A stretch of DNA of 63,581 nt, filler included, from Candidatus Omnitrophota bacterium (GCA_023140385.1; 4 parts of 4 records of this genome joined end to end with filler, not necessarily neighbours in it); one strand, 5' to 3'. Shown: positions 42,934-59,401, counted from the whole stretch's first letter. Translations and numbers: made by a program. Notes: generated by a model from the sequence alone, not told the origin.

Positions 42934-43018
42934 TGGAGGATGACGGGGATTGTTAATTGATATATTTGTCAAAATTCCGGAATTCTATATCTCCCTTACC
43001 CTTTGGAAGGAAAACAAG

Positions 43019-43342
43019 ATGAATCTATGGGCAATAATTTTGACGATTTTAGCATTAGTAGTTGTTATTTTTATAGTTGTTTATGCTATTAAAAACAAAG
43101 GAAAGGAAGTTTTCTTACTTTTAGGGATTTGCTTTCTTATTCCTGCTATTATATTTACAATAGAACTATTATTTGCTGATTTTCCTATAAGTAAAATATC
43201 TATAACATCAAAAGTTCTGCTAACTTTTGCTATAATTTGGGGATTATTTTTCTCTATTAGCCATTTTGTAAAGCATTTTAGGAATAGAATCAGATTAGTA
43301 GTGTACAGGAAAAATCTACAAAATGGCTTTATCTTCTTGTAA
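43019..43342 (+). CDS. Small 3-TM hypothetical protein
   Basis: Hydrophobic AT-rich ORF; AAGGA precedes the ATG at 43019. Confidence 0.5.
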   Translation: MNLWAIILTILALVVVIFIVVYAIKNKGKEVFLLLGICFLIPAIIFTIELLFADFPISKISITSKVLLTFAIIWGLFFSISHFVKHFRNRIRLVVYRKNLQNGFIFL

Positions 43343-43387
43343 AATCTTGTACTAAAATTGCGTTTTAAAATAAAGGAGAAATTAGAA

Positions 43388-43993
43388 ATGAAGATTTTTT
43401 CAATAAAAGTTTTTGACAGGATCTATATTAGAACGATGATTCTGTTTTCTTTTGCCATGCTTTATGGGGGTTTTCAGTTTGGATTTAGACCTCTAATAGG
43501 CATGAGCATTATGCTCCCTCTAGTATTATATATAGCTCCAGTCATACTTTTAATTACAGTTATCTATTTTATAACCCTAATTGTTATGCGCCTAAAAACA
43601 AAAAAATGGATGCAAAACAAATGGACAAATATTCTACCCATATTAATAGTTCTGTCTTTTTTTGTAAGCCTAAATATGATTAATGTAGGAACATACACTG
43701 CTTATTTTTATGCTGGATTTAACAACCTAAGAAAAGACGCAGATGAATTAATAGCAACAGCGCCAGCGGAGCGAACAGAAGTTAATCATTCTGAATATCC
43801 ACCAAGCTTCAAAAGAGTTGGCGCTGGCCGTGTATTTAAGAGCAGTTCCTCAGTTACTATTTGGCGGGGAGGGTGGGTTAGTAAGAAAAATGGAATCATT
43901 ATTTATGCTAATGATAGTCACAAAGCAATTAATTCAGGTGCCTACAATGAGAGCCAACTAAGTAACCGAATATTTAATTTTAGTCTGAATTGA
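43388..43993 (+). CDS. Membrane hypothetical protein
   Basis: Three TM segments plus a soluble C-domain; SD AAGGAG. Confidence 0.6.
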   Translation: MKIFSIKVFDRIYIRTMILFSFAMLYGGFQFGFRPLIGMSIMLPLVLYIAPVILLITVIYFITLIVMRLKTKKWMQNKWTNILPILIVLSFFVSLNMINVGTYTAYFYAGFNNLRKDADELIATAPAERTEVNHSEYPPSFKRVGAGRVFKSSSSVTIWRGGWVSKKNGIIIYANDSHKAINSGAYNESQLSNRIFNFSLN

Positions 43994-44309
43994 TGAAGAT
44001 AAATTAAGAAAAAGTACCAAAAGATAAGAAACATTCGTGCAAATAGAGGACGCTCGAAAAGAGTAAATAAAAAGAAACGTATACGATACTTTCAAAACAA
44101 TTTTGTTTGGCAACGGAGGAAATCAAAAAGAAAGAAGGGTGTTATCAGGATTTTAAAAAAATGATAAAGATGCTTAAGTTCAAAGTTAAAACTTGAACTT
44201 CCCTTCTTTTAATATAAGCGATATGACAGGGGTTAGTGGAGAATAGAGAGTGAAAGGGATGTTGATGCATTTATATGTTTTTCATAAAGATAATAAGTAG
44301 CGAGGGGTT

Positions 44310-45590
44310 ATGAAAATAAATATAAAAAAAGGTGTACTTATCATAATTGTTTTTGCAGTTGTATTTGCCGTGGCCGTAAAGCTCCTTTTAGATAAATTTC
44401 CCAGTGGAGGAACAGGGGAAACGGTTACGGAAAGCGGAGTTCAAGCTCAGGATTTAAAAAAGTTTGTAATCATTCCTAAAGAAATATCACGCGATTTTAG
44501 TTTGATACGCGATAAGCAAACTTTGAAGTCTGCACGTATAAAGAAGAATCCCGGTAGAGTTTTAAAAGATAAGAGAAAGGAAGTAATTCCAGTAATTAAG
44601 TTAGCCAAAACTCCTATTGTTCCGGATAAGGCTTTTTTAGGAGAAACCCTTGATGTGGTTATTCGTGATGAAAAGGGCCAATTTTCGCCAGAAGAAACAA
44701 CTTCCGTTGATTTTGGAATGTTTGTAGAGGTAAATTCTTTTCGTGTGGATAGTCCTACACAGATAAGCGCTAATATTATGATAACTGAGCACATGCCTTA
44801 TAGTACAACCGTAAGTGTTAAGGTTACTACCGCAGGCAAAGAAAAGATCTGTGGGAGATTCAGTATTATTATTCCCCATCTTGCACCTGTAATTGAACGC
44901 ATTGAGCCAGAACCAGGAAAGCCCGGTGAGCTGGTTACTATCCATGGTAAAAATTTTGCTACAAGGTCGCTTAATGCTAACCATATTTACTTTAATGACA
45001 TGCTGGGTATGGTTCAGGAGGCGGAGTTAGACAAAATGGTTGTATTTGTTCCTATGAAATTCAGGGGTGGAAAGGTCATCGTGGTAGTAATAGGAGAAGA
45101 TTGTACTGAAAAAACAAGTAATTCTGTTAATTACACTGTTACAAATCTTCCAAAGCTCAACACCATAGAGTTTGGTCAGACCATAGAAGGAGAGATTCTC
45201 GATTCAGAGTTTTTCGACAGGTATATTTTTGAAGCTATAGAAGGAACCATAGCAACGATAATCGTAAACCGTGTGGCCAATCTTCCCAATGGAGAAGGGA
45301 GCTTGAACCCCATGGTTATGCTCGAGGATAAGGATAGAAGAGGTACGGTTGCCTGGGATGATGACAGTGGAACGGACATCCCCCCAGGGCCAGGAAACAA
45401 TGCTTTAATTCAGAGTGTAGTTTTGGCCAAAACAGGAACCTATGTCATCCTCATAAATGCAGGTACTGGTTATGAAAGTGGGGAAGAGATAATTAGGGTT
45501 AAGAATGGTGACATTATAACGGATTTTAGTAAGCTGCGGGGATTAGGGCCGTATAAGTTGACTTTGATAAAAGAGGATAGTATAAGATAA
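44310..45590 (+). CDS. Membrane-anchored protein with IPT/TIG and PPC-like domains
   Basis: PVIERIEP..G.PGELVTIHGKNF (IPT); DRYIFEAIEG...DDDSG...TGTYVI (PPC-like). Confidence 0.72.
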   Translation: MKINIKKGVLIIIVFAVVFAVAVKLLLDKFPSGGTGETVTESGVQAQDLKKFVIIPKEISRDFSLIRDKQTLKSARIKKNPGRVLKDKRKEVIPVIKLAKTPIVPDKAFLGETLDVVIRDEKGQFSPEETTSVDFGMFVEVNSFRVDSPTQISANIMITEHMPYSTTVSVKVTTAGKEKICGRFSIIIPHLAPVIERIEPEPGKPGELVTIHGKNFATRSLNANHIYFNDMLGMVQEAELDKMVVFVPMKFRGGKVIVVVIGEDCTEKTSNSVNYTVTNLPKLNTIEFGQTIEGEILDSEFFDRYIFEAIEGTIATIIVNRVANLPNGEGSLNPMVMLEDKDRRGTVAWDDDSGTDIPPGPGNNALIQSVVLAKTGTYVILINAGTGYESGEEIIRVKNGDIITDFSKLRGLGPYKLTLIKEDSIR

Positions 45591-45614
45591 AAATTGCTGC
45601 AAAGGAATGAGTAA

Positions 45615-46997
45615 ATGAGAAGTGAGAAATCTATACTTGCTGTATTTTTATGTGTGATTCTAATTAGAGTCTTTTTCCATATAAGTATTTTATCGCCTCT
45701 GCGTCTGTCGCCTGCATTAGATACACTTCAAAAGGGCCGGCCTCATAACAAAATACAATTGGAGAGGGCGAGGGTTTCAAGAGAGTATTATGAAGAAGAG
45801 CAGAAACCCAAACCCCTTCCAAAAGAATTTGTGCTTGCTCTAAAAGATGTAGTTACAGGTGAAAGAGTGGGGATAACTTACACTGTAAGGCGATTAACTG
45901 ACACAGATAGTGCAAGATGCCCTTTTCAGCCGCAAATAAATGAAAAGGGAGATGTTCTGTGGAATACAAGGAGTTGTATTTTTCTTTATGGTGGTAAAGA
46001 TATAAAATCTCTTGGTAAAGGTTTTCATTATTTGCACAATGTAAGAATGAACAATAAGGGCCAAGTAGTGTGGGCGGGAAAAAAAATGCATTTAGGGGAC
46101 GATGAAATATTTTTCTATGACGGTAGAAAAGTTAGGCAGCTAACTAATAATAAACATAGCGATGGATCTCCGAGCATAAATGACCATGGAGAGGTTGTTT
46201 GGAGTGGTTTTGATGGAAAAGATGTGGAAATATTTCTTTACGATGGCAGCAATATAATTCAGCTTACAGATGATACAGATTGTCATAATAATCCCGAAAT
46301 AAATAATCGGGGAGAAGTGGTGTGGGAGATGAATTCAAAAAGAGAAGATTCGGAAATATTCTTTTATGACGGCCAAGGTGTAGAAGTGCTTACGAATAAT
46401 TCAGTTTATGATTATTCTCCTCAAATAAATGATCAGGGGAAAGTAGTGTGGTTCTCAAGGGTAGGTACGGAAGGAAGGGATCGCGATGATGAAATATTGA
46501 TTTATGACGGTAAAGACGTCGTTTGGTTAACGGATAACAAGAGAAGAGAACGTAATGTTCAAATAAATAACCGCGGACAGGCGGTATGGGAAGAGCACGA
46601 CGGGCATGATTGGGAAATATTTTTTGACAATGGCAAAACCGTAATTCAGTTGACGGATAATGATATAGATGATGTTACTCCTCAAATAAACGATGAGGGA
46701 GAAATAGTTTGGTGTGGCGCAGGCCGAGCGCTGCAGTGTGGAAGAAAAATTGAAAGGCAGATATTTTTCTATAACGGCAAAGTTGTAATGCAGCTTACAG
46801 AGGAGGCCGAGGATGTATATGACAATGTACATCCCCATATAAATAACCGGGGAAATATTGTATGGTCCGGCGATTACGGAAGCGGCTACGATATTTTCCT
46901 TGCCACAAAAAACCTCGATCTTTTTGAATCTGCCTTTCCTGGTGATGAGGATAAAATTAAGGCTACGGATATCATAGGCCGAAAACTTCCTTTATAA
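45615..46997 (+). CDS. Exported beta-propeller-like repeat protein
   Basis: Eight ~40-aa repeats PxIN(D/N)xGxVVW...EIFxYDG...QLT. Confidence 0.8.
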   Translation: MRSEKSILAVFLCVILIRVFFHISILSPLRLSPALDTLQKGRPHNKIQLERARVSREYYEEEQKPKPLPKEFVLALKDVVTGERVGITYTVRRLTDTDSARCPFQPQINEKGDVLWNTRSCIFLYGGKDIKSLGKGFHYLHNVRMNNKGQVVWAGKKMHLGDDEIFFYDGRKVRQLTNNKHSDGSPSINDHGEVVWSGFDGKDVEIFLYDGSNIIQLTDDTDCHNNPEINNRGEVVWEMNSKREDSEIFFYDGQGVEVLTNNSVYDYSPQINDQGKVVWFSRVGTEGRDRDDEILIYDGKDVVWLTDNKRRERNVQINNRGQAVWEEHDGHDWEIFFDNGKTVIQLTDNDIDDVTPQINDEGEIVWCGAGRALQCGRKIERQIFFYNGKVVMQLTEEAEDVYDNVHPHINNRGNIVWSGDYGSGYDIFLATKNLDLFESAFPGDEDKIKATDIIGRKLPL

Positions 46998-47225
46998 ATA
47001 TATCTCTATATAATAACTATGGCCGCAAATAATATGATGGTGACCATGTTTCAAAGTTGTTTCTCTATAACGGTAAAACTATTACTCAGCTTGCAGGGAA
47101 AGTATCATGGGAAGACAGATAAAAGGTGTCTTCCCCCAAAAGAACAATAAAGCCCCGCCTTTTGTGTAAATGTAAAAAATTTATCCCGTAATAATTCATA
47201 GAGAAGAAATATTTTGAAAAAATAC

Positions 47226-47254
47226 TTGACAAGTCAACTATTGTATGGTAAACT
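47226..47254 (+). promoter_or_regulatory. Promoter of the MarR-led operon with a palindrome over the -35
   Basis: TTGACA-17 nt-TAAACT with TG extension; TTGAC-AA-GTCAA at 47226-47237. Confidence 0.7.
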
Positions 47255-47277
47255 ATGTTTAAAATAAGGAGAAAGCT

Positions 47278-47757
47278 ATGGAAAAATCTGATTTTTTTAA
47301 GACCTTTGGTGTGGAGTTAAATAATAAGAGATATTATGAAGAGGCCGTCTACAGCGTAGCCTTGATTTATAACGCGCTTAATAATCATATCTCGCGCCAT
47401 CTAAAGGATTATGGGTTGAGCGTAGCCAAATTTAATGTTTTGCTGGTCATCAAGCATCAGGGGCGGGAAGAAGGTGCCAGCCAGGTGAGCATAAGCCAGC
47501 ATCTGGTAGTTACTCCCTCTAATATGACCCGCCTTCTTGATAAACTTGAAAAAGAAAAACTGATTCGCCGCGTCTGCCAAAAAGGCGACAGAAGAGTAAA
47601 TCTAATAAAGATAACGGATAAAGGAATTAATTTGCTGGATAAAATCTGGCCGGGCTATCTTAATAAATTGCAAAGCCTAAGTTCGCACATAACCGCCGCT
47701 GAGAAAAAAATAGTCTCAACGGTGCTTATAAAGTGGTTGAAGGGAGTATTGCAATGA
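47278..47757 (+). CDS. MarR family transcriptional regulator
   Basis: GLSVAKFNVL, SNMTRLLDKLE, DRRVNLIKITDKG. Confidence 0.92.
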   Translation: MEKSDFFKTFGVELNNKRYYEEAVYSVALIYNALNNHISRHLKDYGLSVAKFNVLLVIKHQGREEGASQVSISQHLVVTPSNMTRLLDKLEKEKLIRRVCQKGDRRVNLIKITDKGINLLDKIWPGYLNKLQSLSSHITAAEKKIVSTVLIKWLKGVLQ

Positions 47758-47802
47758 AGGGATTTTTTGCCTAAAGGAGGAAGCTGAAGAAAGGCGGTTT
47801 AA

Positions 47803-48993
47803 ATGAAAAAAGAAGATTTAATTAAGAGTATGGTTGTTGATAAAAGCCCTTTAGTCAAAGCGGGCTTTAATCCTTATTATCAACCTGTCCGGAGCGGCTT
47901 GGGCAGAAATATAAACGTTAACGGTAAATCTCTGATTTCACTGGGTACAAATGATTATCTGGGTATAGCCAATAATGAAGAGATAAAAAAGGAGGCGCTA
48001 AGGGCATTAAGGAAGTTTGGCGTAAGTATGTGCGGCACGCCGATTGTCGTCGGCCAGACCGCCATCAATAGAAAACTCGAGACGGAAATAGCCAGTTTTT
48101 TAAAACAGGAGGACGCTTTAATATTCCCTTCCTGCTACCAGTGCAATATGGGGATTTTCGGCCTTTTGACAACCGGCGAAGATGTAATTATTGCTGACAG
48201 GGAGATTCATTCTTCTTTGTTGAATGGCATTGGCCTGTCCAAAGCCTCTTTTAAGATATTTTCACACAACAATCTTGATAAGCTAGAAAAAGCTTTAGCA
48301 AGATACAGTAACTGCCGGATGAAATTTATAGTTGTTGAAGGTTTGTATAGTACTAACGGAGATGTTCCGCCATTAGACGGGATGATGAAATTAGCGGAGA
48401 AATACGACGCCTTTATCATTGTTGATGATGCCCATGGTGTGGGTGTGCTGGGCAGGGAGGGGCGAGGCGTTTTGGAGGTTTTTGATGCGTTTAAAGAAAT
48501 AGATTTGGTTACCGGCTCGCTGGGTAAGGGAGTAGGTGCCTTCGGAGGATTTTTAGCGGGAGGCGCTCGATTAATTGATTATTTTCGATACAACTCTCCC
48601 CAGTACTTTTACTCCACAGCCCTGCCGCCAGCTATCGCGGCCGCCTCCATTATCTCCCTCAGATATATCAAAGAACACCCTGAAATACGGGAGAGGATAA
48701 ACAGTTATGCCCGAAAACTATATCAAAAACTTGAAACATTAGGTTTTCGCCTGACTAAATCCACCACTCCGGTAGTCTGCGTTCTTTTTGAAACTGCCGA
48801 AGATGCCATTCTGGCAACTAAGATGCTCTATGAAAAAGGTATTTATACGGTTGTCTTTGTGCCGCCCAGTGTGGCCAAAGGGGCTTCGCGAATCAGGTTG
48901 ACTTTAAATGCCAATCTGCAAAGTGAAGACATTGATTTTGTTATCAGCGTCTTTAGTGACATCAAAAAGAGAAAACCGCAGTGGGTAAACTAA
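47803..48993 (+). CDS. PLP-dependent alpha-oxoamine synthase (SPT/BioF/Kbl family)
   Basis: NDYLG, HSSL, FSHNN, EGLYSTNGD, DDAHG, GSLGK (PLP Lys), YSTALPP, SRIRL. Confidence 0.9.
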   Translation: MKKEDLIKSMVVDKSPLVKAGFNPYYQPVRSGLGRNINVNGKSLISLGTNDYLGIANNEEIKKEALRALRKFGVSMCGTPIVVGQTAINRKLETEIASFLKQEDALIFPSCYQCNMGIFGLLTTGEDVIIADREIHSSLLNGIGLSKASFKIFSHNNLDKLEKALARYSNCRMKFIVVEGLYSTNGDVPPLDGMMKLAEKYDAFIIVDDAHGVGVLGREGRGVLEVFDAFKEIDLVTGSLGKGVGAFGGFLAGGARLIDYFRYNSPQYFYSTALPPAIAAASIISLRYIKEHPEIRERINSYARKLYQKLETLGFRLTKSTTPVVCVLFETAEDAILATKMLYEKGIYTVVFVPPSVAKGASRIRLTLNANLQSEDIDFVISVFSDIKKRKPQWVN

Positions 48994-49913
48994 GGTATTA
49001 TCTAATTATGAATCCCGCCTCGAAATCCGGACGAAGCAAAAAGTCCTGCCAACGCGTACTATCTATACTTGACAAGAGAAAGCTCGACTTTAACTATAAA
49101 TTTACCCGCGGGCCGGAGGAAGCGGTAACTCTTGCCGGAGAAGCGGCCGGGAAGGGTTGGGATGTAGTCGTGGCCGTAGGCGGAGACGGGACTATATGCG
49201 AGGTTATCAGCGGGCTTTTAAAAAACGGCCCTTGCGGCCGCCTGCCCAAGCTGGGGGTTTTACATACGGGAACCAGTCCGGACTTTAACCGGTATCACAA
49301 TATTCCGGTTAATTTAAGTGAGGCTGTTGAGGTGTTAATAAGAGGCAAAAGTAAACTCATAGACGCAGGTAAGATTACCTATATGAAGAATTCCTGGAAA
49401 AAAAACATAGCTTACTTTGGCAGTAACGTTAATATAGGCCTGGGGCCGCTGATTGCCGGCAAGGCCAACTCCAGGCATAGAAAACATCTCGGAGATTTTT
49501 TGGGAACCCTTTGCGCTCTCCTGAGTTCTTTGACTGCTTTTAAAGGAGTTGAACTGAAAATCAAAATTGACGGTGAAAAGATAGCTTCCGGCAAATTGAT
49601 TAATTTAACCGTGGGCAAAGATCCTTATCTGGCTTCGGGTATGCGTGTTTTTAGCGGGATAAGGCCGGATGACGGTAAATTGTACGTTCTTCCGGTAAAA
49701 AAGATGCCAGTCCTTTTGTTTCTGATAAATATCTACAGATTATATTGGGGAGATTTTCTAAAATCTAAGGCGGCCAGTATTATCTACGGCAGAAAAATAG
49801 AAATAGAAGGTAATGTTGAACATACTCAGGTAGAGTTTGATGGTGACGTGAGGGGATATTTGCCGGTTAAGATTGAAGTTATTCCCAAAGCTTTAGAGGT
49901 GATATCTCAATGA
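48981..49913 (+). CDS. Diacylglycerol/sphingosine kinase family lipid kinase
   Basis: NPASKSG, GGDGTICEV, GTSPDF, DDGKL, FDGD. Confidence 0.88.
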   Translation: MGKLRYYLIMNPASKSGRSKKSCQRVLSILDKRKLDFNYKFTRGPEEAVTLAGEAAGKGWDVVVAVGGDGTICEVISGLLKNGPCGRLPKLGVLHTGTSPDFNRYHNIPVNLSEAVEVLIRGKSKLIDAGKITYMKNSWKKNIAYFGSNVNIGLGPLIAGKANSRHRKHLGDFLGTLCALLSSLTAFKGVELKIKIDGEKIASGKLINLTVGKDPYLASGMRVFSGIRPDDGKLYVLPVKKMPVLLFLINIYRLYWGDFLKSKAASIIYGRKIEIEGNVEHTQVEFDGDVRGYLPVKIEVIPKALEVISQ

Positions 49914-52273
49914 CTATAAAACATAAGAGAGTATTTATTACCGGTGCCAGCGGTTTTATAGGAAGCCACATTGTAGACAGGCTGGTTGAGGCTGGCTACG
50001 AACTTACAGCTTTAGTTAGAGAGCAAAGCGACCTCTCATTTGTTCCCACTGATAGGTTGACTCTTTGTCAGGGTGATCTGACAGACTATGAAAGTGTAGA
50101 AAAAGCTATGAAAAATTGTGAGGTGGTAGTTCACGCGGCCGCCCGCACATCAGATTGGGGGAATAAAGAAAAATTTTACAGAGCAAACGTAGAAGGAACT
50201 CAAAACCTCTTAAAGGCCGCCCGCGAAAATAAAATCAAGAAGATTATTTTGATTAGTACAACGGCCGTCCTCGGAGAAGAAGACAGCCCTCTGCCGAAGA
50301 AGGAAGATTGTCCATACAAGCCAGTTATGCCCTACTTTATTGGAGGATATTTTGGCTCTGGTATGAATTTGTACCGTCATACAAAGATGCTGGCTGAGAA
50401 GAAGGCCATTAAATTTTGTAGTGAGAACGGCATAGGCCTAATTGTTCTCAGGCCTGTGTGGGTCTATGGCCCCAGGGAGTTTCACGCCGGGCCGTATGAA
50501 TTTTGCCGGGCAGTTTTAAGCGGCAGCCGGTTCCTGCCCATGGGCAGGAAGAACAGGTTTCACGTTATCTATGTCAAGGACGTAGCTATTTCAGTAGAGC
50601 TGGCATTAAAAAAGGATTTAGCCGGAGTGCATATTTTTAACTTAGGCAATGAAGAGGCGCCCTGTATAAGAAACTATTTTAGTCTCTTTTGCGAACACCT
50701 AAACGTAAAATCCCCGTTTTATGTTTCTTTCCGACTGGTTTATCCCGCGGGAATATTATTGGAACTGCTGGCAAGGTTGTTCAGGGCAAAAAAGCCGTAT
50801 TTGTTAACTTCAGCCAGGGTCAAGATGTTTTATTGTAATAATATTTATGATGTTTCAAAAGCAAGAAGAGTTTTAGGTTTTAGGGCCGAAATGCCGCTTG
50901 ATGAAGGAGTAAGGGAGACTATTCAGTGGTGGAAGGATAACGGCTATCTGGCGGATAGAAAAGAGAAGCACCGGAAGTTAAAACAAAGATACGTTGTGGG
51001 GGCGGAAAGGCTTCTTCTCGACATTCGTATAGCTGTAACTGTATTTTTAAAATATTTACTTCGTCTTTTTAAAGGAGAAATCAGCCTCAGGCAGTATCTG
51101 ATTTTTCTTAAAAGGCTTATGTTGTTTTCCAAAGTTTTTTCTTACAACAAGGCGGTGCGTATCAACGGTGCTTACAAAATTCACCTCTATCTGCCAGCCT
51201 TTCCCAGTAGGGCGTTTTACCGCGCGATTGATAAGTTTTTAATCCTGGATGAAAAGACCATTCCAACCACTGTTATTTTTTCTATGACCAGAGCTTGTAC
51301 TTACAATTGCGCTTATTGCTACCAAAAGAGAGACGGCGGAGACGACTTGCCGGAGGACAAACTAATACAAACAGCAAAAGAAATTCAAAACCTCGGCGTC
51401 AGCCTCTTTGACATCGAGGGTGGTGAACCATTGTTAAGGTTTGAAAGACTGTTTAACCTGATACAGACGATAGATGATAGAAGCGAGGTATGGATTAACA
51501 CTACCGGCCATAGCCTGACTTATCAAAAAGCGCTGAGGCTAAAAAAGGCTGGTTTGTTTGGAGTAATGATATCTATTCACCGGACCGAAGCCGGCCGGCA
51601 CGATGAATTAGTAGGCCGCAAAGGAGCCTATCAAATCGCTTGTTCTGCCATAAAGATTTTTCAGCGGGCAGGTCTTAATACGGTTATAAACTGCTGTCCA
51701 TCGCTTAAAATGATAAAAGAAGGCGGAATAGAAAAAATAATGGAGCTTGGCCGCGGGCTTAACTGCAGCTTTGTGCAGATTATTCATGAAAAACCTTCGG
51801 GCGGCCGGTTGAGTTTAAATAACACCTTTATGGATAAGAAAACGCTGGACGCGCTTTGCGATAAACATATTGGATACAATAGAAAGGAAGGCTTGAAGTT
51901 ATATCCATCCCTATCTATGCAGGTTTTTGAGGCCTCTCCCATAGCCTTTGGATGTACCGCCGGTGGTATAGAAAGATTTTATGTAAATGCTCACGGTGAA
52001 GTTCAGCCCTGCGAGTTTTTAAATATCTCTTTTGGTAACGTGCAAGATGAAGGTTTTATGGAGATATATAAAAGAATGAGAGATAATTTTAAAAAGCCCG
52101 CCTTAGAGTGGCTGTGTAATAGCAGGTGTTCTTCGATAGCAAAGTACGTTAACGGGCACAATATTTCCTTCCTCCCGCTTAAAAAAGAAGATACCCTGAA
52201 ATTGATAAAAACCTGGCCTAAACGGGATGAAGTGCCGCTTTACGGTAAAATGAAAATTTGCGAGAGGGTGTGA
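49910..52273 (+). CDS. Fusion of an extended SDR (3-beta-HSD-like) and a radical SAM/SPASM-twitch domain
   Basis: TGASGFIG, YRHTK, RPVWVYGP in the N-half; CTYNCAYC, GGEP and CTAG...GEVQPC in the C-half; one uninterrupted ORF. Confidence 0.88.
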   Translation: MTIKHKRVFITGASGFIGSHIVDRLVEAGYELTALVREQSDLSFVPTDRLTLCQGDLTDYESVEKAMKNCEVVVHAAARTSDWGNKEKFYRANVEGTQNLLKAARENKIKKIILISTTAVLGEEDSPLPKKEDCPYKPVMPYFIGGYFGSGMNLYRHTKMLAEKKAIKFCSENGIGLIVLRPVWVYGPREFHAGPYEFCRAVLSGSRFLPMGRKNRFHVIYVKDVAISVELALKKDLAGVHIFNLGNEEAPCIRNYFSLFCEHLNVKSPFYVSFRLVYPAGILLELLARLFRAKKPYLLTSARVKMFYCNNIYDVSKARRVLGFRAEMPLDEGVRETIQWWKDNGYLADRKEKHRKLKQRYVVGAERLLLDIRIAVTVFLKYLLRLFKGEISLRQYLIFLKRLMLFSKVFSYNKAVRINGAYKIHLYLPAFPSRAFYRAIDKFLILDEKTIPTTVIFSMTRACTYNCAYCYQKRDGGDDLPEDKLIQTAKEIQNLGVSLFDIEGGEPLLRFERLFNLIQTIDDRSEVWINTTGHSLTYQKALRLKKAGLFGVMISIHRTEAGRHDELVGRKGAYQIACSAIKIFQRAGLNTVINCCPSLKMIKEGGIEKIMELGRGLNCSFVQIIHEKPSGGRLSLNNTFMDKKTLDALCDKHIGYNRKEGLKLYPSLSMQVFEASPIAFGCTAGGIERFYVNAHGEVQPCEFLNISFGNVQDEGFMEIYKRMRDNFKKPALEWLCNSRCSSIAKYVNGHNISFLPLKKEDTLKLIKTWPKRDEVPLYGKMKICERV

Positions 52274-52274
52274 A

Positions 52275-53228
52275 ATGTTTTCTAAAAGGATTATTATTTC
52301 TTATGTAAAGTCAACGCGCCCGTATCTGTTTTTTGTTTCAGGTATGGCCGGCTTGCTTGGCATTGTCTTTTCGGAAACAATAGCCTCCTGTGGAAGGACT
52401 ATTTGTATCTTAATCGTACTTTTTTTAGGCTGGGGGGTAAATCAGGTTATCAATGACCTGCTCGGTTTAAGAGAAGATAGAATTAATGCTCCTCATCGTC
52501 CTTTGGTGAGCGGAGAGCTGCCCATTAAAGCGGCCGTTGTCATAAGTCTTCTTTTATTTGCCGGCGGCGGATTAGTTACCTTCTTATTAAACCCGCAGGC
52601 TTTGTTTATCTACAGCGCGATATTTCTCATGAACTTCATTTACGAATATTCAAAAAGTGTACCGGTTCTTGGTAATTTTATCTTTGGTTTTTTGCTCGCC
52701 CTTTGCGTTTATTACGGCGCTGTCTGTCTCAGTCCCCGGGGCTTAGATGCCTTCCTTGATAAAAAACTGCTATTATTGGCGATAAGCGTGGTTTTGATAA
52801 ACATTACGACAGCCTTTTACACTTATTATAAAGACGCCAGAGGTGATTATCTTGCCGGAAAGAAGACTATAATTGTTTGCCTGAAGCCTGACAGAGCAAG
52901 ATATTTGAATTTTATCGTTAGCCTCCTTCCTTTTGTGATCGTTCCGGCTTTGCTATTTTCTCCGGCATGGAACGAAAAAATAAATATATATTTTATAGCT
53001 TTCCTTTTTTTATCTTTTGTTATTTTACAATACACGGCCCTGCTCTTTTTTAAGCATCCCCGGGGCCCTCAAACCTACTTCTCGCTTAGGTGGAATTTTA
53101 CGGGAGCCGTTTTATTTAAAACTTCTTTTGTTGCTCTTGTAAACCCTCTTTTGGCAGGTGTATTATTTTTGGCCAACTTTATCTTAATTAAGTTTTTATT
53201 TAAATTACATTCGGATTATTTGGTTTAA
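52275..53228 (+). CDS. UbiA family prenyltransferase
   Basis: TRP, NDLLGLREDRINAPHRPLVSG, YKDARGD...GKKT; multiple TM helices. Confidence 0.9.
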   Translation: MFSKRIIISYVKSTRPYLFFVSGMAGLLGIVFSETIASCGRTICILIVLFLGWGVNQVINDLLGLREDRINAPHRPLVSGELPIKAAVVISLLLFAGGGLVTFLLNPQALFIYSAIFLMNFIYEYSKSVPVLGNFIFGFLLALCVYYGAVCLSPRGLDAFLDKKLLLLAISVVLINITTAFYTYYKDARGDYLAGKKTIIVCLKPDRARYLNFIVSLLPFVIVPALLFSPAWNEKINIYFIAFLFLSFVILQYTALLFFKHPRGPQTYFSLRWNFTGAVLFKTSFVALVNPLLAGVLFLANFILIKFLFKLHSDYLV

Positions 53229-53270
53229 AATGGTATAATTATAAAAAATGTAGAAACAAAAGGAGGATAT

Positions 53271-53669
53271 ATGAAAGTTCAAAAGTGGATAAAGCCTTTT
53301 TTTATTATTGCCGGTTTATATGACGGAATTTTGGGTATTATTTTTTTAATAGTTCCGCTTGAACTTTTTAAGACGGCTGCCATCGCCCCGCCCAATCACA
53401 TTGGCTACGTGCAATTTCCGGCACTACTTTTAATTGTCATTGCGGTGATGTTCTTTAATATTGCTAAAGATCCCATAGCCAACCGCAACCTGATTTTATA
53501 CGGTATCTTAGTCAAAATTTCCTACTGCCTGGTAGTATTTCCGCATTGGCTGACCGGCAACATACCGTCTATCTGGATACCCTTTGCTTTTTTTGACCTT
53601 GGGTTTTTGGTAATGTTTTTTATTGCAGGCAAAACACTTAAGCAGACGATGCTAAATAGTCAAAAATAG
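53271..53669 (+). CDS. 4-TM hypothetical membrane protein
   Basis: SD AAGGAGG; AGLYDG, DPIANR, FAFFD. Confidence 0.7.
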   Translation: MKVQKWIKPFFIIAGLYDGILGIIFLIVPLELFKTAAIAPPNHIGYVQFPALLLIVIAVMFFNIAKDPIANRNLILYGILVKISYCLVVFPHWLTGNIPSIWIPFAFFDLGFLVMFFIAGKTLKQTMLNSQK

Positions 53670-53677
53670 ATAATCAA

Positions 53678-53975
53678 ATACGGCCTATTTACACAATTTA
53701 AGATTTATAACGAAGCCAACATTGAGTTGATGTGGGTAAAGCGTAATTTTCTCGGTACGAAAATAACTTTTTTCCTCGCCGGCAGAGAAGAAGTTTCTTT
53801 ATTTTCCCTTAAGAGGGCATCAACAAAGTTTGGCCTATTAAGAGGGAGTATATTTGACCAGCATAAGATGCTGGCAGGGGGTTTTGAGTGTCAATAGGTA
53901 TCGATTCTATGAAATTTTACGCAGTGTTGGATAAGTATAATCAAAAGATAGGGGACACTGATTACGAAGTTTGAT
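53678..53975 (+). pseudogene. Possible decayed gene fragment (LURP-one/scramblase-like pattern)
   Basis: Startless frame YGLFTQFKIYNEANIELMWVKR...IFDQ ends in a stop; VLDKYNQKIG continues in another frame. Confidence 0.3.
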
Positions 53976-53990
53976 AAAAAGATTCTTGAA

Positions 53991-54230
53991 ATGGAAAAAG
54001 TGTTGAATGTTGAGAACCTGGCCCCTTACGACCGCATGACCCTATACTTCTATACTGGTGATGATTTTATTGATTTGAATGATAATAGATTATGGGATGA
54101 AGGAGAACCATGCGATGACGGGAACAATGATGGTGAATATACTCCTCCAGGATTTAAAACCGAAGGAGATTTAATTGATAATCCAGGCTTTGGAATTGAA
54201 CCAGATAAATTGAATTCTAAACTTAATTAG
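53991..54230 (+). CDS. Short acidic ORF, probably the C-terminal remnant of a larger Ca-binding-repeat protein
   Basis: FIDLNDNRLWDEGEPCDDGNNDGEY motif. Confidence 0.4.
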   Translation: MEKVLNVENLAPYDRMTLYFYTGDDFIDLNDNRLWDEGEPCDDGNNDGEYTPPGFKTEGDLIDNPGFGIEPDKLNSKLN

Positions 54231-54239
54231 GGAATCACT

Positions 54240-55205
54240 ATGAAAACAAAATATATTTTGATTTGTCTTAGTTTGCTTTTAACTATTATTTCTTTCAATA
54301 TTTATGCAGATAATAAAATAGAAACTTTAAAAACATATTTAGAAGACAAAAAAATATCAGACTCACCAAATGCCAATGGATTATCCCATCTGGGATCCAA
54401 AGGGTATATAAAACCTGAAGATCAAGTATATATAAATTTAGTTAATAATTTATATGAAATATATCCTCAAAGATTTAGTGTTAGTGTAAGAATTAGTTTA
54501 GCAAAAGAATTAATATCGATTGAAAAAAATGACAAAGCAATAGATATTCTCTTGCCACTAATAAATGAAGTAAAAAAAAGATCTGTATTCTGGGAGTATT
54601 GTTCTAATTGGACATTCAGAGAAGCTCAAGCTAAAGAATTAGAAGGGTTATTTTTATTAACGGAATTATATTTGAAGGATAATAATGTAGATAAAGCACT
54701 TGATGTTTTAATAATTATAAAACAATATTATCCATTTAGAGAAAAAAGTATCGATTCTTTTCTTCTATTTAAAGAGAAATTGAGAAAGTTTAATGAAAAG
54801 CAGAAAGCTATTTTTAATCGTCTTATAACAAAGCAGTTAATTTTTATGAATTCAAACAAATGGGAAGAGCTTGGATTGTTAAGGGATGACAGATTAAATA
54901 AATTGAAGTCGGAACTAGTTGCTTCAGAACCAATTGACGAATTATCATTAAATATAGAGTTCTATAGTTTTGAATCAGAAAAATATTTTATGGTAGTTGC
55001 TTATGTTTCACCAAATACTTCTTTAGTTAACTGTTCTTTTAATTGGGTTATCGAAGGTTCTTACAAAGGAGATAGAGTCTTTAATAATTTTGTATTAATA
55101 GAAAAAGAAAACTTAAAAAATAAAAAAATAAAATTAACAATTACAGATAAGGAAGATAAAATTATTGAAAAGGAATATAATATTTTGCCATCAGCACCCC
55201 AATAA
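54240..55205 (+). CDS. AT-rich exported helical (TPR-like) hypothetical protein
   Basis: Signal peptide ending IYA; LTELYLKDNNVDKALDVL; markedly AT-rich. Confidence 0.6.
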   Translation: MKTKYILICLSLLLTIISFNIYADNKIETLKTYLEDKKISDSPNANGLSHLGSKGYIKPEDQVYINLVNNLYEIYPQRFSVSVRISLAKELISIEKNDKAIDILLPLINEVKKRSVFWEYCSNWTFREAQAKELEGLFLLTELYLKDNNVDKALDVLIIIKQYYPFREKSIDSFLLFKEKLRKFNEKQKAIFNRLITKQLIFMNSNKWEELGLLRDDRLNKLKSELVASEPIDELSLNIEFYSFESEKYFMVVAYVSPNTSLVNCSFNWVIEGSYKGDRVFNNFVLIEKENLKNKKIKLTITDKEDKIIEKEYNILPSAPQ

Positions 55206-55323
55206 CCCCTAAACATAAACTGATAGCGTGTAGATAAATTAGGGGTATAGGGGTAGGGGGCCAGGTCTTTAATCTTGACATAAATATAAGTAAATAAATA
55301 AAAATGGTAAGGTATAAGGCATT

Positions 55324-55665
55324 ATGGCAAGACCATTGCGAATAGAATACGATGGAGCTGTTTATCATATAACAGCCAGGGGAAATGAAAGGAGGCCTAT
55401 TTTTAAGGATAATGAAGATAGGTTTCTCTTTTTTAATATTATGAATCAAGTAAAGAAGAAATACAACTGGCTTTGCCACACATATTGTTTGATGAATAAT
55501 CATTATCATTTATTGATAGAGACTCCAGATGGGAATCTTTCCCATGGGATGAGGCAATTGAATGGGGTGTATACACAGGTGTTTAATAAGAAGCATAAAA
55601 GAGTTGGGCATGTGTTCCAAGGAAGATATAAAGCGATATTGATACAAACTAAACAGTCGTTTTAA
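55324..55665 (+). pseudogene. Truncated REP-associated tyrosine transposase (Y1 HUH family)
   Basis: MARPLRIE, YHITARGN, CLMNNHYHLL (HUH), GHVFQGRYKA; stops before the catalytic-Tyr (YIHxNP) segment. Confidence 0.85.
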
Positions 55666-55687
55666 CCAAATTGAGGATAAGTGCGCT

Positions 55688-56752
55688 ATGAGAAAGATTA
55701 TATTAGCTCTTCTTTTTTCTGTTTGCCTAATATCTCAGTCATCTTCCGAAGAGGTGTCGCAGGCTCAGATTATGGAAGAATTCGGAGAAACTATAGGAGA
55801 GCCCATAGATTCAGGATTCGTCTTCTTTGATGGTTGTTATATTGATGCGCCGTATCGAGTAATAAGAAAAGGACTTGCAGTCTATATCAACAATGTGATG
55901 ATACGCAAACCCATCCCATGGCCTCCGAGAGACTTAAGAGTTTCACAAGATCCTGGGGTTCCAAAAGGGCTAACAGAAAATAGCAGCTTTGAGGATCTTG
56001 ATGATAAGAATGATCCATACAATGGATATCGTGCGAGAAAATGGCGATATATGCACCAGCATTTTTCTTCAGAAGTAGCTGTCAAGAAGATGGCGGATTA
56101 CTATGCTTCTTTTCCCTTTGTGCGTAGTGTGACGTTTGAAGATTCTGTCACTATCATTGTAGAGACCGTAAAGGGAGAAAAAAGAGGAATAGATGTGGGA
56201 CCTCCATCTCGTGATTCGTGGTTTCTCAAGCCACCAAAGCGAGAGGATGTGTTGAAGGAAGTTCAATACGTTTGCACTCGCTTCGAGAATCGCCTTGCGG
56301 AAAATGATTGTTTTTTCCTGTTTAGCAAGGGCGGGGAACTGTCCTTTGGAAAGACGAAAGTTTGTAAAGATTTAGGATTAATTGTCACCATCCTTCGTTC
56401 TAAAAGGTCAGATGATGAAAAGATTATTTTATTAAAACGTTTGAGTGTTCTACCTCCAGAGGGTGAAGTATTCAAGCCATTAGTGACAAATTTTCAAGCC
56501 TCAGCTCAGCTTGAACAACGGATTGATGCCGCTGTAAAAAAATCAGGCATAACTCCGAGAACCTTCGATGAGATTCCTCTTATACCACTTCATTTGGAAC
56601 AGAGGCTATCTCTGATTAAAGATGACAAAATCCGGACAAAAAATTCTCTTGAAAAAGAGAAAGACCCCGAGGTCAGAGAAAAACTGCAGAGGAGGTTAAA
56701 ATTCCTTGAAAGAGAAGAGAAAGAAATAAGGGAGAAATACAGAAAAAGATAG
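55688..56752 (+). CDS. Exported hypothetical protein
   Basis: Signal peptide; 354-aa ORF with a charged C-terminal helix. Confidence 0.65.
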   Translation: MRKIILALLFSVCLISQSSSEEVSQAQIMEEFGETIGEPIDSGFVFFDGCYIDAPYRVIRKGLAVYINNVMIRKPIPWPPRDLRVSQDPGVPKGLTENSSFEDLDDKNDPYNGYRARKWRYMHQHFSSEVAVKKMADYYASFPFVRSVTFEDSVTIIVETVKGEKRGIDVGPPSRDSWFLKPPKREDVLKEVQYVCTRFENRLAENDCFFLFSKGGELSFGKTKVCKDLGLIVTILRSKRSDDEKIILLKRLSVLPPEGEVFKPLVTNFQASAQLEQRIDAAVKKSGITPRTFDEIPLIPLHLEQRLSLIKDDKIRTKNSLEKEKDPEVREKLQRRLKFLEREEKEIREKYRKR

Positions 56753-56829
56753 ATTCCCATAAGTAAACAAGCAATCAGGGAACACTGGACTTCCCCAAGT
56801 AAAATGGATGCCAGATAGTGGTATAATAT

Positions 56830-56910
56830 TGAGCTGCCTCGGATTTGACGGACACTGTATAGTAGAGACAAGTTGAAATGGAGGTGTCCGATGAAGAAGA
56901 AAAGAATGGT
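56830..56910 (+). mobile_element. Possible IS3-family left-end remnant
   Basis: TGAGCTGCCTCGGATTTGACGGACAC end-like sequence, GGACAC/GTGTCC inversion, SD GGAGG and ATG-KKKR start with no transposase following. Confidence 0.4.
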
Positions 56911-56955
56911 TTTTTATGGATGTCTCCCCGATTTATGCCCCCTGATTTAAAATAC

Positions 56956-56984
56956 TTGATTTTTTAAAATCATTAAGTTATAAT
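56956..56984 (+). promoter_or_regulatory. Sigma70-type promoter of the DUF212 to accA run
   Basis: TTGATT-17 nt-TATAAT. Confidence 0.6.
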
Positions 56985-57036
56985 AAATTATCCTGACATA
57001 CACAATAGGCAAAAATTAATAAAAAAGAGAGTTTGT

Positions 57037-57483
57037 ATGGGTGAATTTTTTGGCGCTTTGTTTAGCAATAAGGTTTTGTTGATTGCCGTTTTGTCCTGGT
57101 TTATAGCTCAGAGCGTCAAGGTGTTGGTGGGTATTATAAGGGAAAAGAGATTTAACTTTAAGTGGTTTGTGGGGACGGGGGGGATGCCCAGTTCTCACGC
57201 GGCCGGCGTAGCGGCTCTGGCGATGGCCGTTGGTTTAAGTAAAGGTTTTGATTCCGTGATCTTCGCGGTTTCACTGCTCTTTGCCGTAATTGTAATGTTT
57301 GACGCGCAGGGAGTAAGGCAGGATACAGGCATTCAGGCGGAGGTTCTTAATGAGATTACTGATGACATATACTTTAAGCGCGGAATTAAGGAAGAGAAGT
57401 TAAGGGAACTTGTGGGACATACGCCGGTTGAGGTATTGGCCGGTATGATTCTGGGAATCTTAATCAGTTTAGTATTTTATTGA
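57037..57483 (+). CDS. Divergent PAP2 family protein (DUF212)
   Basis: AQSVK, TGGMPSSHAA, VMFDAQGVR, ELVGHTPVEV. Confidence 0.9.
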   Translation: MGEFFGALFSNKVLLIAVLSWFIAQSVKVLVGIIREKRFNFKWFVGTGGMPSSHAAGVAALAMAVGLSKGFDSVIFAVSLLFAVIVMFDAQGVRQDTGIQAEVLNEITDDIYFKRGIKEEKLRELVGHTPVEVLAGMILGILISLVFY

Positions 57484-57516
57484 TATTTTTAAAATAGTTT
57501 TATTGGGGAGGCATAG

Positions 57517-58416
57517 TTGAAAAAGATAGTTATTACGGCTGTAGTTATCGTAGTAATAACCGCGGTTTTCATATCCTTTATAACACATTCCAGGAACTCA
57601 GCGTCGTCCTTAGAAAGCCGGCTGAGTAAGGCGCGGTTGTTGGTGAAAAACCAGAACTTAAAAGAGGCCAAGGAAAGCTACCGCTTGATTATTGATGATT
57701 TTAAAGAGTCTGAAAAAGCGGCAATTGCTCTAAGTGAGCTGGCGGACATCTATCGCGCGGAAGGCCAGCCTTTAAAGGCCAAGCAGATTTATACTGATAT
57801 TATTCGCCGGTATCCGGAGCATAACGCGGTGGTTGAAATTCAGGATAAACTTTGGAATCTTAATATTGAAATACTTTTTTCGGGGCTGATAACGGATAAT
57901 AGTGCGGTCTATGAGGTTAAGGCTGGAGATACTTTAAGTAAAATAGCAAAAAAGTTTAAGACGACGGTTGAGTTGATGAAAAGAAGCAATGACATAAAAA
58001 ACTTAACCATCCGGCCCAATGACAGGTTAAAAGTTGTAACAGCCGCCTTCAGCATTGTGGTTGATAAGTCTCAAAACACACTTACGTTAAAAGCGGGAGA
58101 TGAAGTTATCAAAATTTACAGTGTATCGACCGGCAAGGATAACTGTACTCCGACAGGTGATTTTACGATTGTTACTAAGCTGAAAGATCCCGTTCATTTT
58201 CAACCCGGAAAGATAATTCCGGCGGAAAGCCCGGAAAACGTTTTAGGCTCGCGCTGGATGGGCCTTTCGGTCAAGTCCTACGGAATACACGGTACAGTCG
58301 AAGAGGGAAGTATAGGCCAGCAGATTACTAAGGGATGTGTCAGAATGACGAACGGGGAAGTTGAAGAGCTTTATGATATTGTTACTAAGGGCACTGAAGT
58401 AACCATAGTGGATTAG
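57517..58416 (+). CDS. L,D-transpeptidase (YkuD) with TPR and LysM domains
   Basis: [13 protein letters not shown] (LysM), YGIHGT...TKGCVRM. Confidence 0.9.
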
Positions 58417-58420
58417 ACAA

Positions 58421-59401
58421 ATGAGCGGAAACGGTTTGGAATTTGAAAAACCCATAATAGAGCTGGAGAAAAAGATAGCGGAGCTTCAAAGTTTTACCTC
58501 CGGCGAGAAGATGGATCTTAATAATGAGATCCAAAGTCTTCAGAAAAAATTGGAGCAGTTGAAGAAGGAGATATATAAAAATTTAACTCCCTGGCAAAGG
58601 GTGCAGATAGCGCGCCACCTCCAGAGGCCCTATATGATGGACTACGTAAAAGCTATTACTCAGGGCTTTATAGAGCTTCATGGAGACAGAAGGTTTGGCG
58701 ATGACAAGGCGATGGTGGGCGGATTTGCGACAATAGAGGGGGACAAGGTATTAGTAATCGGGCATCAAAAAGGCCGGGGCATAAAACAACAGGTAGAAAG
58801 AAACTTCGGATGCGCTCATCCGGAGGGGTACCGCAAGGCTCTAAGGTTAATGAAGCTGGCGGAGAAGTTTGACATTCCTATTATTTGTCTTATTGATACG
58901 CCGGGCGCCTATCCGGGCGTTGGAGGTGAAGAGAGGGGCCAGGCGGAAGCTATTGCGGTTAATTTAAGGGAAATGGTTTCTCTGAGAACCCCGATAGTTG
59001 TGGTAGTAATTGGAGAGGGCGGTTCTGGTGGAGCTTTGGGTATAGGTGTAGGAGACAGGATATGTGTTTTAGAGAACGCCTATTACTCTGTTATTTCACC
59101 CGAAGGCTGTTCGGCGATTCTGTGGAAGAAGAAAGAGTTAGCTGAAGAGGCGGCCAGGGTATTAAAGTTAACGGCAAAGGATTTGCTTGACCTTAAGATA
59201 ATTGATAAAATTATTTCTGAGCCCTTAGGCGGAGCCCACCGGGATTATGAAAAGGCGGCCAAGGCCGTCAAAGAGGCAATACTCGGACATCTTCAGGAAT
59301 TAAAAAAAATGAGCAAAGATGAGTTGATTGAAGCAAGATATCAGAAGTATAGAAAGATAGGCGTCTTTAAAGAGCCTCCGTTAGAAAGCAGTGTTTCTTA
59401 A
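58421..59401 (+). CDS. accA: Acetyl-CoA carboxylase carboxyltransferase alpha subunit
   Basis: [40 protein letters not shown]. Confidence 0.97.

Follow-up and report, generated by a model that had tools for sequence, protein, structure and literature searches.

A conserved cassette of alpha-oxoamine synthase, lipid kinase, radical SAM and UbiA genes in an Omnitrophota bacterium, and its possible lipid product

Described lipid pathways and the cassette

The bacterial sphingolipid core consists of a serine palmitoyltransferase (Spt or SPT), a dedicated acyl carrier protein (ACP), the CerR reductase and bCerS, with ceramide or sphingoid kinases in addition. In the archaeal ether-lipid route, digeranylgeranylglyceryl phosphate (DGGGP) synthase (DGGGPS) prenylates the hydroxyl next to the phosphate-bearing carbon of a single-chain lipid. 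Here we describe a gene cassette that, judged by its enzyme families, looks like a cross between the sphingolipid core and the DGGGP synthase step while being a member of neither. It lies in a stretch of 63,581 nucleotides (the window) from a Candidatus Omnitrophota bacterium (GCA_023140385.1, hereafter G000) and encodes an alpha-oxoamine synthase (AOS), a soluble lipid kinase, a fusion of a short-chain dehydrogenase/reductase with a radical SAM enzyme (SDR::rSAM) and a UbiA-family prenyltransferase, preceded by a MarR-family regulator and followed by a small four-transmembrane (4-TM) protein. The cassette is a real, conserved and uncharacterised biosynthetic unit, a variant of known lipid-building logic, and a search of a limited full-text collection returned no description of the gene combination. 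Our tentative reading, held at a little below even confidence, is that it forms an oxygen-independent operon for an undescribed membrane lipid, in which a long-chain amino alcohol would be combined with an isoprenoid.

With the sphingolipid core, the cassette shares the AOS, an extended-SDR reductase, a DAGK-family lipid kinase and, in its fuller versions, a dedicated ACP. It differs in that its AOS fails the SPT models, no N-acyltransferase recurs, and UbiA and the radical SAM enzyme are obligatory partners. Both systems are spread widely over anaerobes of many phyla. According to Ding et al. (2024, PMC11334938), the anoxic Black Sea harbours Spt-like genes from 38 bacterial phyla but none from archaea, whereas the cassette is also found on archaeal contigs. 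That study also describes numerous nitrogen-containing lipids of euxinic waters that lack an assignment, and the part of it consulted here makes no mention of UbiA or radical SAM partners of Spt-like genes. DGGGP synthase, in turn, is the closest solved and curated relative of the cassette UbiA. The latter nevertheless scores far below the curated cut-offs, carries an N-D-x-x-G-x-x-E-D motif in 36 of 36 aligned proteins, occurs in G000 without a geranylgeranylglyceryl phosphate synthase (GGGPS), and would act on an acceptor that is presumably not a glycerol ether. DGGGPS-like UbiA genes are widespread in bacteria, with uncertain function, and GGGPS/DGGGPS pairs occur in FCB bacteria, as stated by Coleman et al. 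(2019, PMC6431249).

Two-step activation of a lipid alcohol that feeds a UbiA enzyme is found in plants, where VTE5 and VTE6 act with VTE2. Pairs of a radical SAM enzyme and an NAD(P) reductase, BtrN and AprD4/AprD3, act on amino alcohols, their substrates being aminoglycosides. The cassette likewise couples a twitch-type radical SAM enzyme to an SDR, here by fusion, and its substrate is presumed to be an amino alcohol; however, it has no specific sequence or fold relation to these enzymes (BtrN, Z 12.4), which modify aminoglycosides and not lipids. Archaeal geranylgeraniol kinase and geranylgeranyl phosphate (GGP) kinase, as presented in PMC9385802, are matched in 48 of 80 cassette loci by a lipid kinase followed by a ThiL-like kinase beside UbiA, but they belong to other kinase families, and the window lacks a second kinase. 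The radical SAM lipid modifiers named in PMC11868695 comprise Tes/GDGT-MAS, Gms, Grs and Mss. They share with the cassette the oxygen-free action of a radical SAM enzyme on a membrane lipid, presumed in our case, and the wider family of the cassette enzyme includes members fused or adjacent to UbiA and PlsC. The likeness to these modifiers seems generic, GDGT-MAS (Z 17.2) ranking under SkfB, BlsE and PqqE as a fold match, and the cassette enzyme has one auxiliary-cluster motif instead of several.

Gene set, coupling and conservation

The window consists of four contig pieces of G000 (C8:1-30470, C9:65754-76913, C10:70071-89845 and C20:1-1876, in this order), joined by runs of N at 30471-30570, 41731-41830 and 61606-61705, and features cannot be linked across the joints. 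The cassette lies entirely inside the piece at 41831-61605, which is G000:C10:70071-89845 at a contig end. Its six open reading frames (ORFs), all on the plus strand, overlap or lie 1-45 nt apart. The MarR gene (159 aa, 47278-47757) is followed by the AOS gene (396 aa, 47803-48993) and by the kinase gene (310 aa, 48981-49913), which overlaps the latter by 13 nt. The SDR::rSAM fusion (787 aa, 49910-52273) overlaps the kinase gene by 4 nt and is composed of an SDR half (residues 1 to ~354, 49910-50971) and an rSAM half (residues ~355-787, 50972-52273). After a 1-nt gap follows UbiA (317 aa, 52275-53228) and, 42 nt further on, the gene for the 132-aa 4-TM protein (53271-53669). Without MarR, the cassette spans ~5.9 kb. 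An initial annotation, made from the sequence alone, had described these genes as tightly coupled, which the ORF coordinates bear out; each family that it named was recovered with Pfam and NCBIfam, and a Kyte-Doolittle scan found the four hydrophobic segments of its 4-TM protein. The GC content of the cassette (41.7%) is close to the genome mean (41.0%) and thus gives no compositional sign of a foreign insert; horizontal transfer into G000 found no support from composition. Among the sequencing runs listed as possible sources of this DNA were four DNA runs of one study and no RNA run.

To follow the gene set across genomes, we used a domain alignment of the rSAM half, the full-length fusion as query having returned only one weak SDR relative. 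The rSAM-half profile found 607 representatives at E <= 1e-30 in 1.84 billion proteins, and 703 clusters at E <= 1e-60 among 8000 candidates scored. The best 80 of 150 rSAM-half relatives in species-representative genomes were taken as loci, and the genes lying up to 8 kb from the rSAM gene were counted by tblastn, many of the contigs being cut short. On this count the kinase and UbiA are each present in 69 of the 80 loci, the SDR in 54 and the AOS in 52, followed by the ThiL-like gene (48 loci) and an OYE-type flavin reductase (38 loci). A ketosynthase (KS, 11 loci) and an ACP (8 loci) stand beside the AOS, the 4-TM gene was counted in 11 loci and MarR in 3, and MMPL exporters occur in 4. All five enzyme functions lie within 8 kb in 44 of the 80 loci. 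Of the 31 loci flanked on each side by 6 kb or more, 24 have the full set; the seven exceptions among these roomy loci are L012, L021, L022, L026, L034, L038 and L076, and AOS and SDR are both present in 27 of the 31. The shared presence of the five functions is more than chance. The initial annotation had staked its reading on the genes being conserved together, and together they are kept, in more than half of the loci, over many phyla and in several gene orders.

At least three gene orders were distinguished, in many bacterial phyla and on some archaeal contigs. Going by the names of the records, the order of the window, AOS-kinase-SDR-rSAM-UbiA-4TM, occurs in Omnitrophota, a metagenome-assembled genome (MAG) labelled 'Planctomycetia', Woese-, Pace- and Nanoarchaeota, and Thermoplasmatota. 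Among the matches listed, every named one is from a MAG. UbiA-rSAM-kinase-ThiL-(OYE)-AOS-SDR is the order in Kiritimatiellia, Lentisphaerae, Verrucomicrobiota, Phycisphaerae, Armatimonadota and Elusimicrobiales, and (KS)-ACP-AOS-SDR-rSAM-kinase that in Riflebacteria/Ozemobacteraceae and Bdellovibrionales. For at least two contigs the archaeal carriers are real: L038 encodes aCPSF1 (771 bits, cut-off 580) along with other archaeal markers, and L024 an archaeal phosphoglucose/phosphomannose isomerase and Rad50. The genes flanking the Thermoplasmatota loci are not diagnostic of archaeal origin.

Among nearer relatives the cassette is rare. No orthologue turned up in 40 close relatives of G000, where the rSAM part is matched at 35% identity at best, and of 200 further sampled genomes of the phylum one, G194 of the same class, carries the cassette. 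Its locus (L130, G194:C16, 2174-11747) holds ten mostly overlapping genes on one strand, 37-63% identical to the window proteins, in the order UbiA-OYE-ACP-AOS-kinase-ThiL-like-KS-SDR-rSAM-4TM, with the 4-TM protein 63% identical to that of the window. Another Omnitrophota locus, L012, is a MAG segment in which a stand-alone rSAM gene (62% identical) and a 4-TM gene (9977-11739) sit amid the housekeeping genes secDF, mfd, surA, pdxA and ksgA; no AOS, kinase, SDR or UbiA gene was found within 10 kb of that rSAM gene. In two PVC loci (L046:7228-8970 and L077:586-2358), a 580-aa PLP enzyme is encoded between MarR and UbiA. Its nearest likeness is to the threonine-phosphate decarboxylase CobD (175 bits, below the cut-off), and it has an N-terminal extension of ~240 aa that matches no family. 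These two versions of the cassette might thus involve an amino-acid intermediate that is phosphorylated.

Enzyme families and genome context

The AOS belongs to the PLP-dependent BioF/Kbl/SPT superfamily (Aminotran_1_2, 167 bits) and is evenly distant from its named members. It reaches 334 bits with the NCBIfam bioF model (cut-off 426.45), 326.7 and 282.2 bits with the Kbl models (460 and 493), and 293.9, 286.4 and 225.6 bits with the SPT models NF047599, NF047600 and NF047603 (500, 640 and 670); it also matches the autoinducer-synthase model PRK07179 (213 bits), CqsA structures (E 2e-30) and ALAS (238 bits). Its solved relatives include Kbl, BioF/Kbl and SPT alike, Kbl structures being the best, and none of the cassette AOS proteins scored from other loci passed an SPT model. 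As the protein passes no curated SPT model, the term sphingoid, used in the initial annotation, serves as an analogy and does not denote membership in the curated SPT families. A genome search showed the window AOS to be the only one in G000, a genome of 1.50 Mb in 57 contigs that is 92.7% complete, and no BioB over the cut-off was found there (best 49.9 against 225 bits). A single AOS without such a BioB excludes BioF and upholds the argument made against it at the outset.

The lipid kinase passes DAGK_cat (90.9 bits, cut-off 23.6) and YegS_C (66.4, cut-off 27) in Pfam and narrowly misses TIGR00147 in NCBIfam (114.8 against 118.65); its best solved relative is DgkB (2qv7, E 7e-19). Directly 3' of this gene, and often overlapping it, 48 of the 80 loci have a ThiL-like gene of the AIRS family, which among curated models scores highest with ThiL (120-140 bits, cut-off 184). 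ThiL itself is an AIRS-family member that converts a phosphate to a diphosphate. No ThiL-like gene was found in the window or in the other loci sharing its gene order, and elsewhere in G000 only a 97-residue match of 29% identity turned up. A second DAGK-type kinase downstream, as in L013, was considered as a general feature and dropped, being limited to 1 of the 80 loci.

The SDR half of the fusion matches Epimerase (136 bits, residues 8-246) and resembles above all the lipid ketoreductases HpnA and OleD, with NCBIfam scores of 168 bits for HpnA and 141 and 124 bits for OleD-type models, all below cut-off. Its best solved relative is 3wj7, a 'putative oxidoreductase', and threonine dehydrogenase is absent from its 54 matches among solved structures. 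The rSAM half (match to residues 458-740) passes Radical_SAM (66.9 bits, cut-off 29.5) and SPASM (29.3, cut-off 21.5) in Pfam. It begins with two long amphipathic helices, has no transmembrane segment in a Kyte-Doolittle scan and carries a CX3CX2C motif, the invariant cysteines of the alignment being C109, C113, C116, C328, C347 and C382. Because only three invariant cysteines are C-terminal, we read it as a partial SPASM or 'twitch' enzyme with one auxiliary cluster. The AF2 model of this half (pLDDT 94.3) matched SkfB (Z 23.4), BlsE (21.2), PqqE (21.2), GDGT-MAS (17.2, rank 11) and BtrN (12.4), with SuiB, viperin, MoaA and anSME as further fold relatives. These matches of a predicted structure place the enzyme in the SPASM/twitch subgroup without settling its reaction. 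At the sequence level, the best NCBIfam scores are NirJ2 (88.9 bits) and AhbD (85.2 bits), and no curated NCBIfam family fits the rSAM half, nine of its relatives or one UbiA::rSAM fusion. The match to the GDGT-MAS (Tes) sequence (E 4.6e-5) covers the core only, and the NCBIfam Tes model lies outside the best 25 matches of the fusion.

The fusion itself is found in 21 protein clusters, that of the window included, while the stand-alone rSAM form of ~430-445 aa is found in many more. In two proteins the same rSAM family is fused to UbiA (P0203, 721 aa, 483 bits; P0204, 739 aa, 470 bits), and more distant members have a PlsC-type acyltransferase (P0332) or methyltransferases as fusion partners. 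Together, the SDR and UbiA fusions place the rSAM step beside the reductase and prenyl-transfer steps, at the membrane; from the fusions we propose that UbiA and rSAM may be in contact. In a class relative (L104, G027), a 35%-identical rSAM paralogue is encoded directly downstream of a UbiA gene with a polyprenyl synthase nearby, so the rSAM-UbiA partnership is older than the cassette and tied to isoprenoids.

The surroundings of these relatives were recorded as well. The L104 operon (G027:C62:1-10243, ~1630-9830, minus strand) encodes an alpha/beta hydrolase, the polyprenyl synthase, a methyltransferase::radical-SAM/SPASM fusion, a 289-aa protein matching no family, UbiA, the radical SAM/SPASM paralogue, a 152-aa protein matching no family and a third radical SAM enzyme that carries a zinc ribbon of the HMPTM type; the operon has the look of a further undescribed cluster that modifies isoprenoids. 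L103 (G026:C7:99000-117000, ~6287-17301) holds three B12-binding radical SAM genes, one of them methyltransferase-fused, two GT2 glycosyltransferase genes and a pair of radical SAM and SDR genes that are distant relatives of the window fusion. P0208 (1467 aa) has a cassette-type rSAM at its N-terminus (432 bits) and DUF362 near its C-terminus, separated by ~650 residues that match no family.

UbiA passes the Pfam UbiA model (92 bits, cut-off 34.2), has nine hydrophobic segments and finds its closest solved relative in DGGGPS (6m31, E 2.5e-10). None of the curated DGGGPS models was passed (92, 83.5 and 71.6 bits against 269, 353 and 296), and NCBIfam gave weak matches to ChlG/BchG. The K-D-x-x-G-D motif is invariant in the same 36 of 36 aligned cassette proteins as the motif given above, and the invariant residues are N60, D61, E67, D68, K186, D187 and D191. 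In the canonical UbiA family, the middle position of the first motif is Asp, where the cassette proteins have Gly. As to the donor, G000 encodes IspH and a single polyprenyl synthase side by side on C15, so a polyprenyl diphosphate is available. GGGPS of the PcrB family was not detected in G000 (best 18.6 bits against a cut-off of 23.9, which archaeal and Bacillus control genomes pass), and this excludes the canonical archaeal ether-lipid route. The genome further contains a PlsC acyltransferase and one FabF, PlsC indicating that ordinary phospholipid synthesis coexists with the cassette. A second UbiA gene of G000 (C7:29577-30290, 74 bits) lies in L094 (G000:C7:28077-31790) between two epimerase/SDR-type genes, one with an in-frame TAG, which could form a separate prenyl- or phosphoribosyl-transfer cluster.

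The MarR protein passes Pfam MarR (38.2 bits, cut-off 24.6) and MarR_2 (38.3, cut-off 27), matches SarA/Rot at 42.4 bits and stays below all NCBIfam equivalog cut-offs. An orthologue of 51% identity occupies the same position in L015, and MarR adjoins the cassette in the window, L015, L037 and L046. Upstream of it lies a promoter-like site, TTGACA-17-TAAACT with an extended TG (47226-47254, plus strand, 10 of 12 matches), followed by an RBS-like AAGGAGA (47266-47272). The site is the best of 22, where shuffles expect 17.5 sites, so it is weak alone; its -35 coincides with the start of the initially annotated region at 47226. A palindrome, TTGACAAGTCAA (47226-47237), overlaps the -35; like the RBS it was read by eye, and the repeat finder did not report it. 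It is a plausible candidate for a MarR operator. The earlier description of the operon as MarR-controlled thus retains the adjacent regulator and a candidate operator but not a conserved linkage, as tblastn places MarR beside the cassette in 3 of the 80 loci and clustering in 5. For the 132-aa 4-TM protein, neither Pfam nor NCBIfam gave a family, and an Atlas search returned only unnamed clusters with a weak DoxX-like fold; its gene was found in 15 loci by clustering, against 11 by tblastn.

On the upstream side, the cassette is bordered by genes for an IPT/TIG-domain protein (44310-45590) and for a repeat or beta-propeller-like protein (45615-46997). The 3' side is AT-rich within 53670-56752 (28% GC at 54000-54999) and contains two genes matching no family, at 54240-55205 (321 aa, hydrophobic N-terminus) and 55688-56752 (354 aa). 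PAP2 enzymes remove phosphate from lipid phosphates. At a distance of 3.4 kb downstream, at 57037-57483, the cassette is followed by a DUF212 'divergent PAP2' gene (172 bits); none of the 80 loci has a DUF212/PAP2 gene near the cassette.

A possible pathway and its alternatives

Gene content, coupling, conservation and fusions are observations; the substrates, the product and the order of steps that follow are those suggested by the enzyme families. The AOS would join an amino acid to a fatty chain, delivered as acyl-ACP or acyl-CoA, in a condensation that gives an alpha-amino ketone, in the fuller versions probably with an acyl chain supplied by the dedicated ACP and KS, and the SDR half would reduce this ketone to the amino alcohol. 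The DgkB/YegS-type kinase may then phosphorylate a hydroxyl of the amino-alcohol lipid. The DGGGPS-like UbiA, in a step modelled on archaeal DGGGP synthase acting on geranylgeranylglyceryl phosphate (GGGP), would attach a polyprenyl chain to a hydroxyl or amino group left free on the phosphorylated backbone. Its donor, a polyprenyl diphosphate, can come from the MEP pathway of G000 and its single polyprenyl synthase. Finally, the twitch-type rSAM half, positioned at the membrane beside UbiA, might subject the product or a precursor to radical modification, either a dehydrogenation or desaturation or the formation of a C-C bond. The 4-TM protein could be an accessory membrane partner, and MarR may repress the operon at the palindrome over the -35. 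A hybrid lipid or small molecule had been proposed in the initial annotation; the lipid reading is strengthened by ACP, KS, MMPL and the PlsC::rSAM and UbiA::rSAM fusions, whereas the product, the amino acid, the kinase substrate and the step order are read from enzyme families. In a more specific form, which we consider possible but doubtful, the product would join a sphingoid-like amino alcohol phosphate to an archaeal-style isoprenoid, would be finished by the rSAM enzyme, and would be shared horizontally among anaerobes of many bacterial phyla and archaea (DPANN, Thermoplasmatota). The DGGGPS-like enzyme would in this case have switched from a glycerol to a non-glycerol acceptor.

Several observations weigh against an operon for an amino-alcohol isoprenoid lipid. 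The AOS scores as high with BioF and Kbl as with SPT and passes no curated model, and the Gly in place of the middle Asp of UbiA means that the diphosphate substrate may be unusual. The lack of the cassette in the 40 relatives and in all but one of the 200 sampled genomes indicates that it is dispensable. Two loci with room on both sides lack both AOS and SDR, namely L038 (kinase-rSAM-UbiA-4TM, neither gene within 10 kb) and L076 (UbiA-rSAM-kinase-ThiL-OYE), and L012 has only the rSAM and 4-TM genes of the cassette. Across the 80 loci no N-acyltransferase recurs within 8 kb, which, as far as these neighbourhoods reach, speaks against a ceramide pathway. The ThiL-like kinase and the OYE reductase, frequent as they are, are not covered by the five-step scheme; they would fit a scheme in which the kinases build a diphosphate donor.

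Such a scheme makes kinase, rSAM and UbiA the core of the system. A lipid alcohol, not necessarily derived from the AOS, would be converted to the mono- and then the diphosphate for UbiA, with AOS and SDR supplying one possible acceptor or precursor; polyprenols, fragments scavenged from ether lipids and the cassette's own amino alcohol are candidates for this lipid alcohol. We regard this as unlikely. It would amount to a salvage or activation route, perhaps analogous to geranylgeraniol kinase and GGP kinase feeding prenyltransferases, and it would account for the ThiL-like gene that follows the kinase, often overlapping it, with ThiL as its best curated match, for the missing AOS and SDR of L076 and of the archaeal contig L038, and for the fact that many carriers have small genomes and are perhaps host-dependent. 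Known prenyltransferases require a pyrophosphate donor, and activities of both archaeal kinases are found in Sulfolobus, according to PMC9385802. However, the window and the loci of its gene order have no ThiL-like gene, and in G000 the diphosphate could not arise in this way; G000 makes its own isoprenoid diphosphates, and AOS and SDR accompany the core in 27 of the 31 roomy loci. Moreover, we know of no DAGK_cat-family enzyme that phosphorylates prenols. The AOS, whose family includes autoinducer synthases (PRK07179 and CqsA matches, above), would also allow for a diffusible prenylated amino ketone or alcohol in the style of the CqsA/LqsA alpha-hydroxyketone signals or of pyrazine precursors, sensed or regulated through MarR. 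Although the adjacency of MarR in four loci, the patchy distribution among relatives and the frequency of SPASM/twitch enzymes in secondary metabolism are in keeping with a diffusible product, we judge it quite unlikely: only 3-5 of 80 loci have MarR next to the cassette, sensor kinases and exporters show no general conservation, and a membrane-bound lipid substrate is indicated by ACP, KS, MMPL, the kinase with its likeness to DgkB, UbiA as an integral membrane protein and the UbiA::rSAM fusions.

The remaining explanations are close to refuted. That the AOS is an ordinary BioF or Kbl with unrelated neighbours is very improbable: its highest NCBIfam scores (bioF 334, Kbl 327) and its best solved relatives, Kbl structures, lean this way, but both scores are below the curated cut-offs, no BioB exceeds its own, the SDR does not resemble threonine dehydrogenases, the genes overlap, and 44 of 80 loci, spread over phyla and gene orders, retain the full set. 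Scarcely tenable is a tetrapyrrole-type cofactor branch, in which an ALAS-like AOS, an AhbD/NirJ-like rSAM enzyme and a heme-O- or chlorophyll-synthase-like UbiA would cooperate. The NirJ2, AhbD, ChlG/BchG and ALAS matches on which it draws are far under their cut-offs (500, 500, 313 and 338.55), porphobilinogen-pathway genes do not recur in the neighbourhoods, and the lipid kinase, SDR, ACP and KS would be left unexplained.

The links that are new here are the UbiA::rSAM fusions, the rSAM paralogue beside UbiA and a polyprenyl synthase, and the fuller versions with ACP, KS, ThiL-like and OYE genes. There is a fair chance that the cassette encodes a truly new lipid class. If the reading as an operon for an amino-alcohol isoprenoid lipid is true, a widespread and so far unrecognised class of lipids would exist in anoxic sediments, groundwater and seeps, joining parts from three lipid worlds, a sphingoid base, a phosphate head and an isoprenoid ether or amine. 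Should the doubtful, more specific form hold as well, Archaea would have in it their first lipid route of sphingoid type, and the 'lipid divide' between bacteria and archaea would be breached once more. As the cassette is short and self-contained, a direct test by heterologous expression is possible, and the link from genes to lipid would give a new biomarker, besides adding an activity to those of UbiA enzymes and a reaction to those of radical SAM enzymes.

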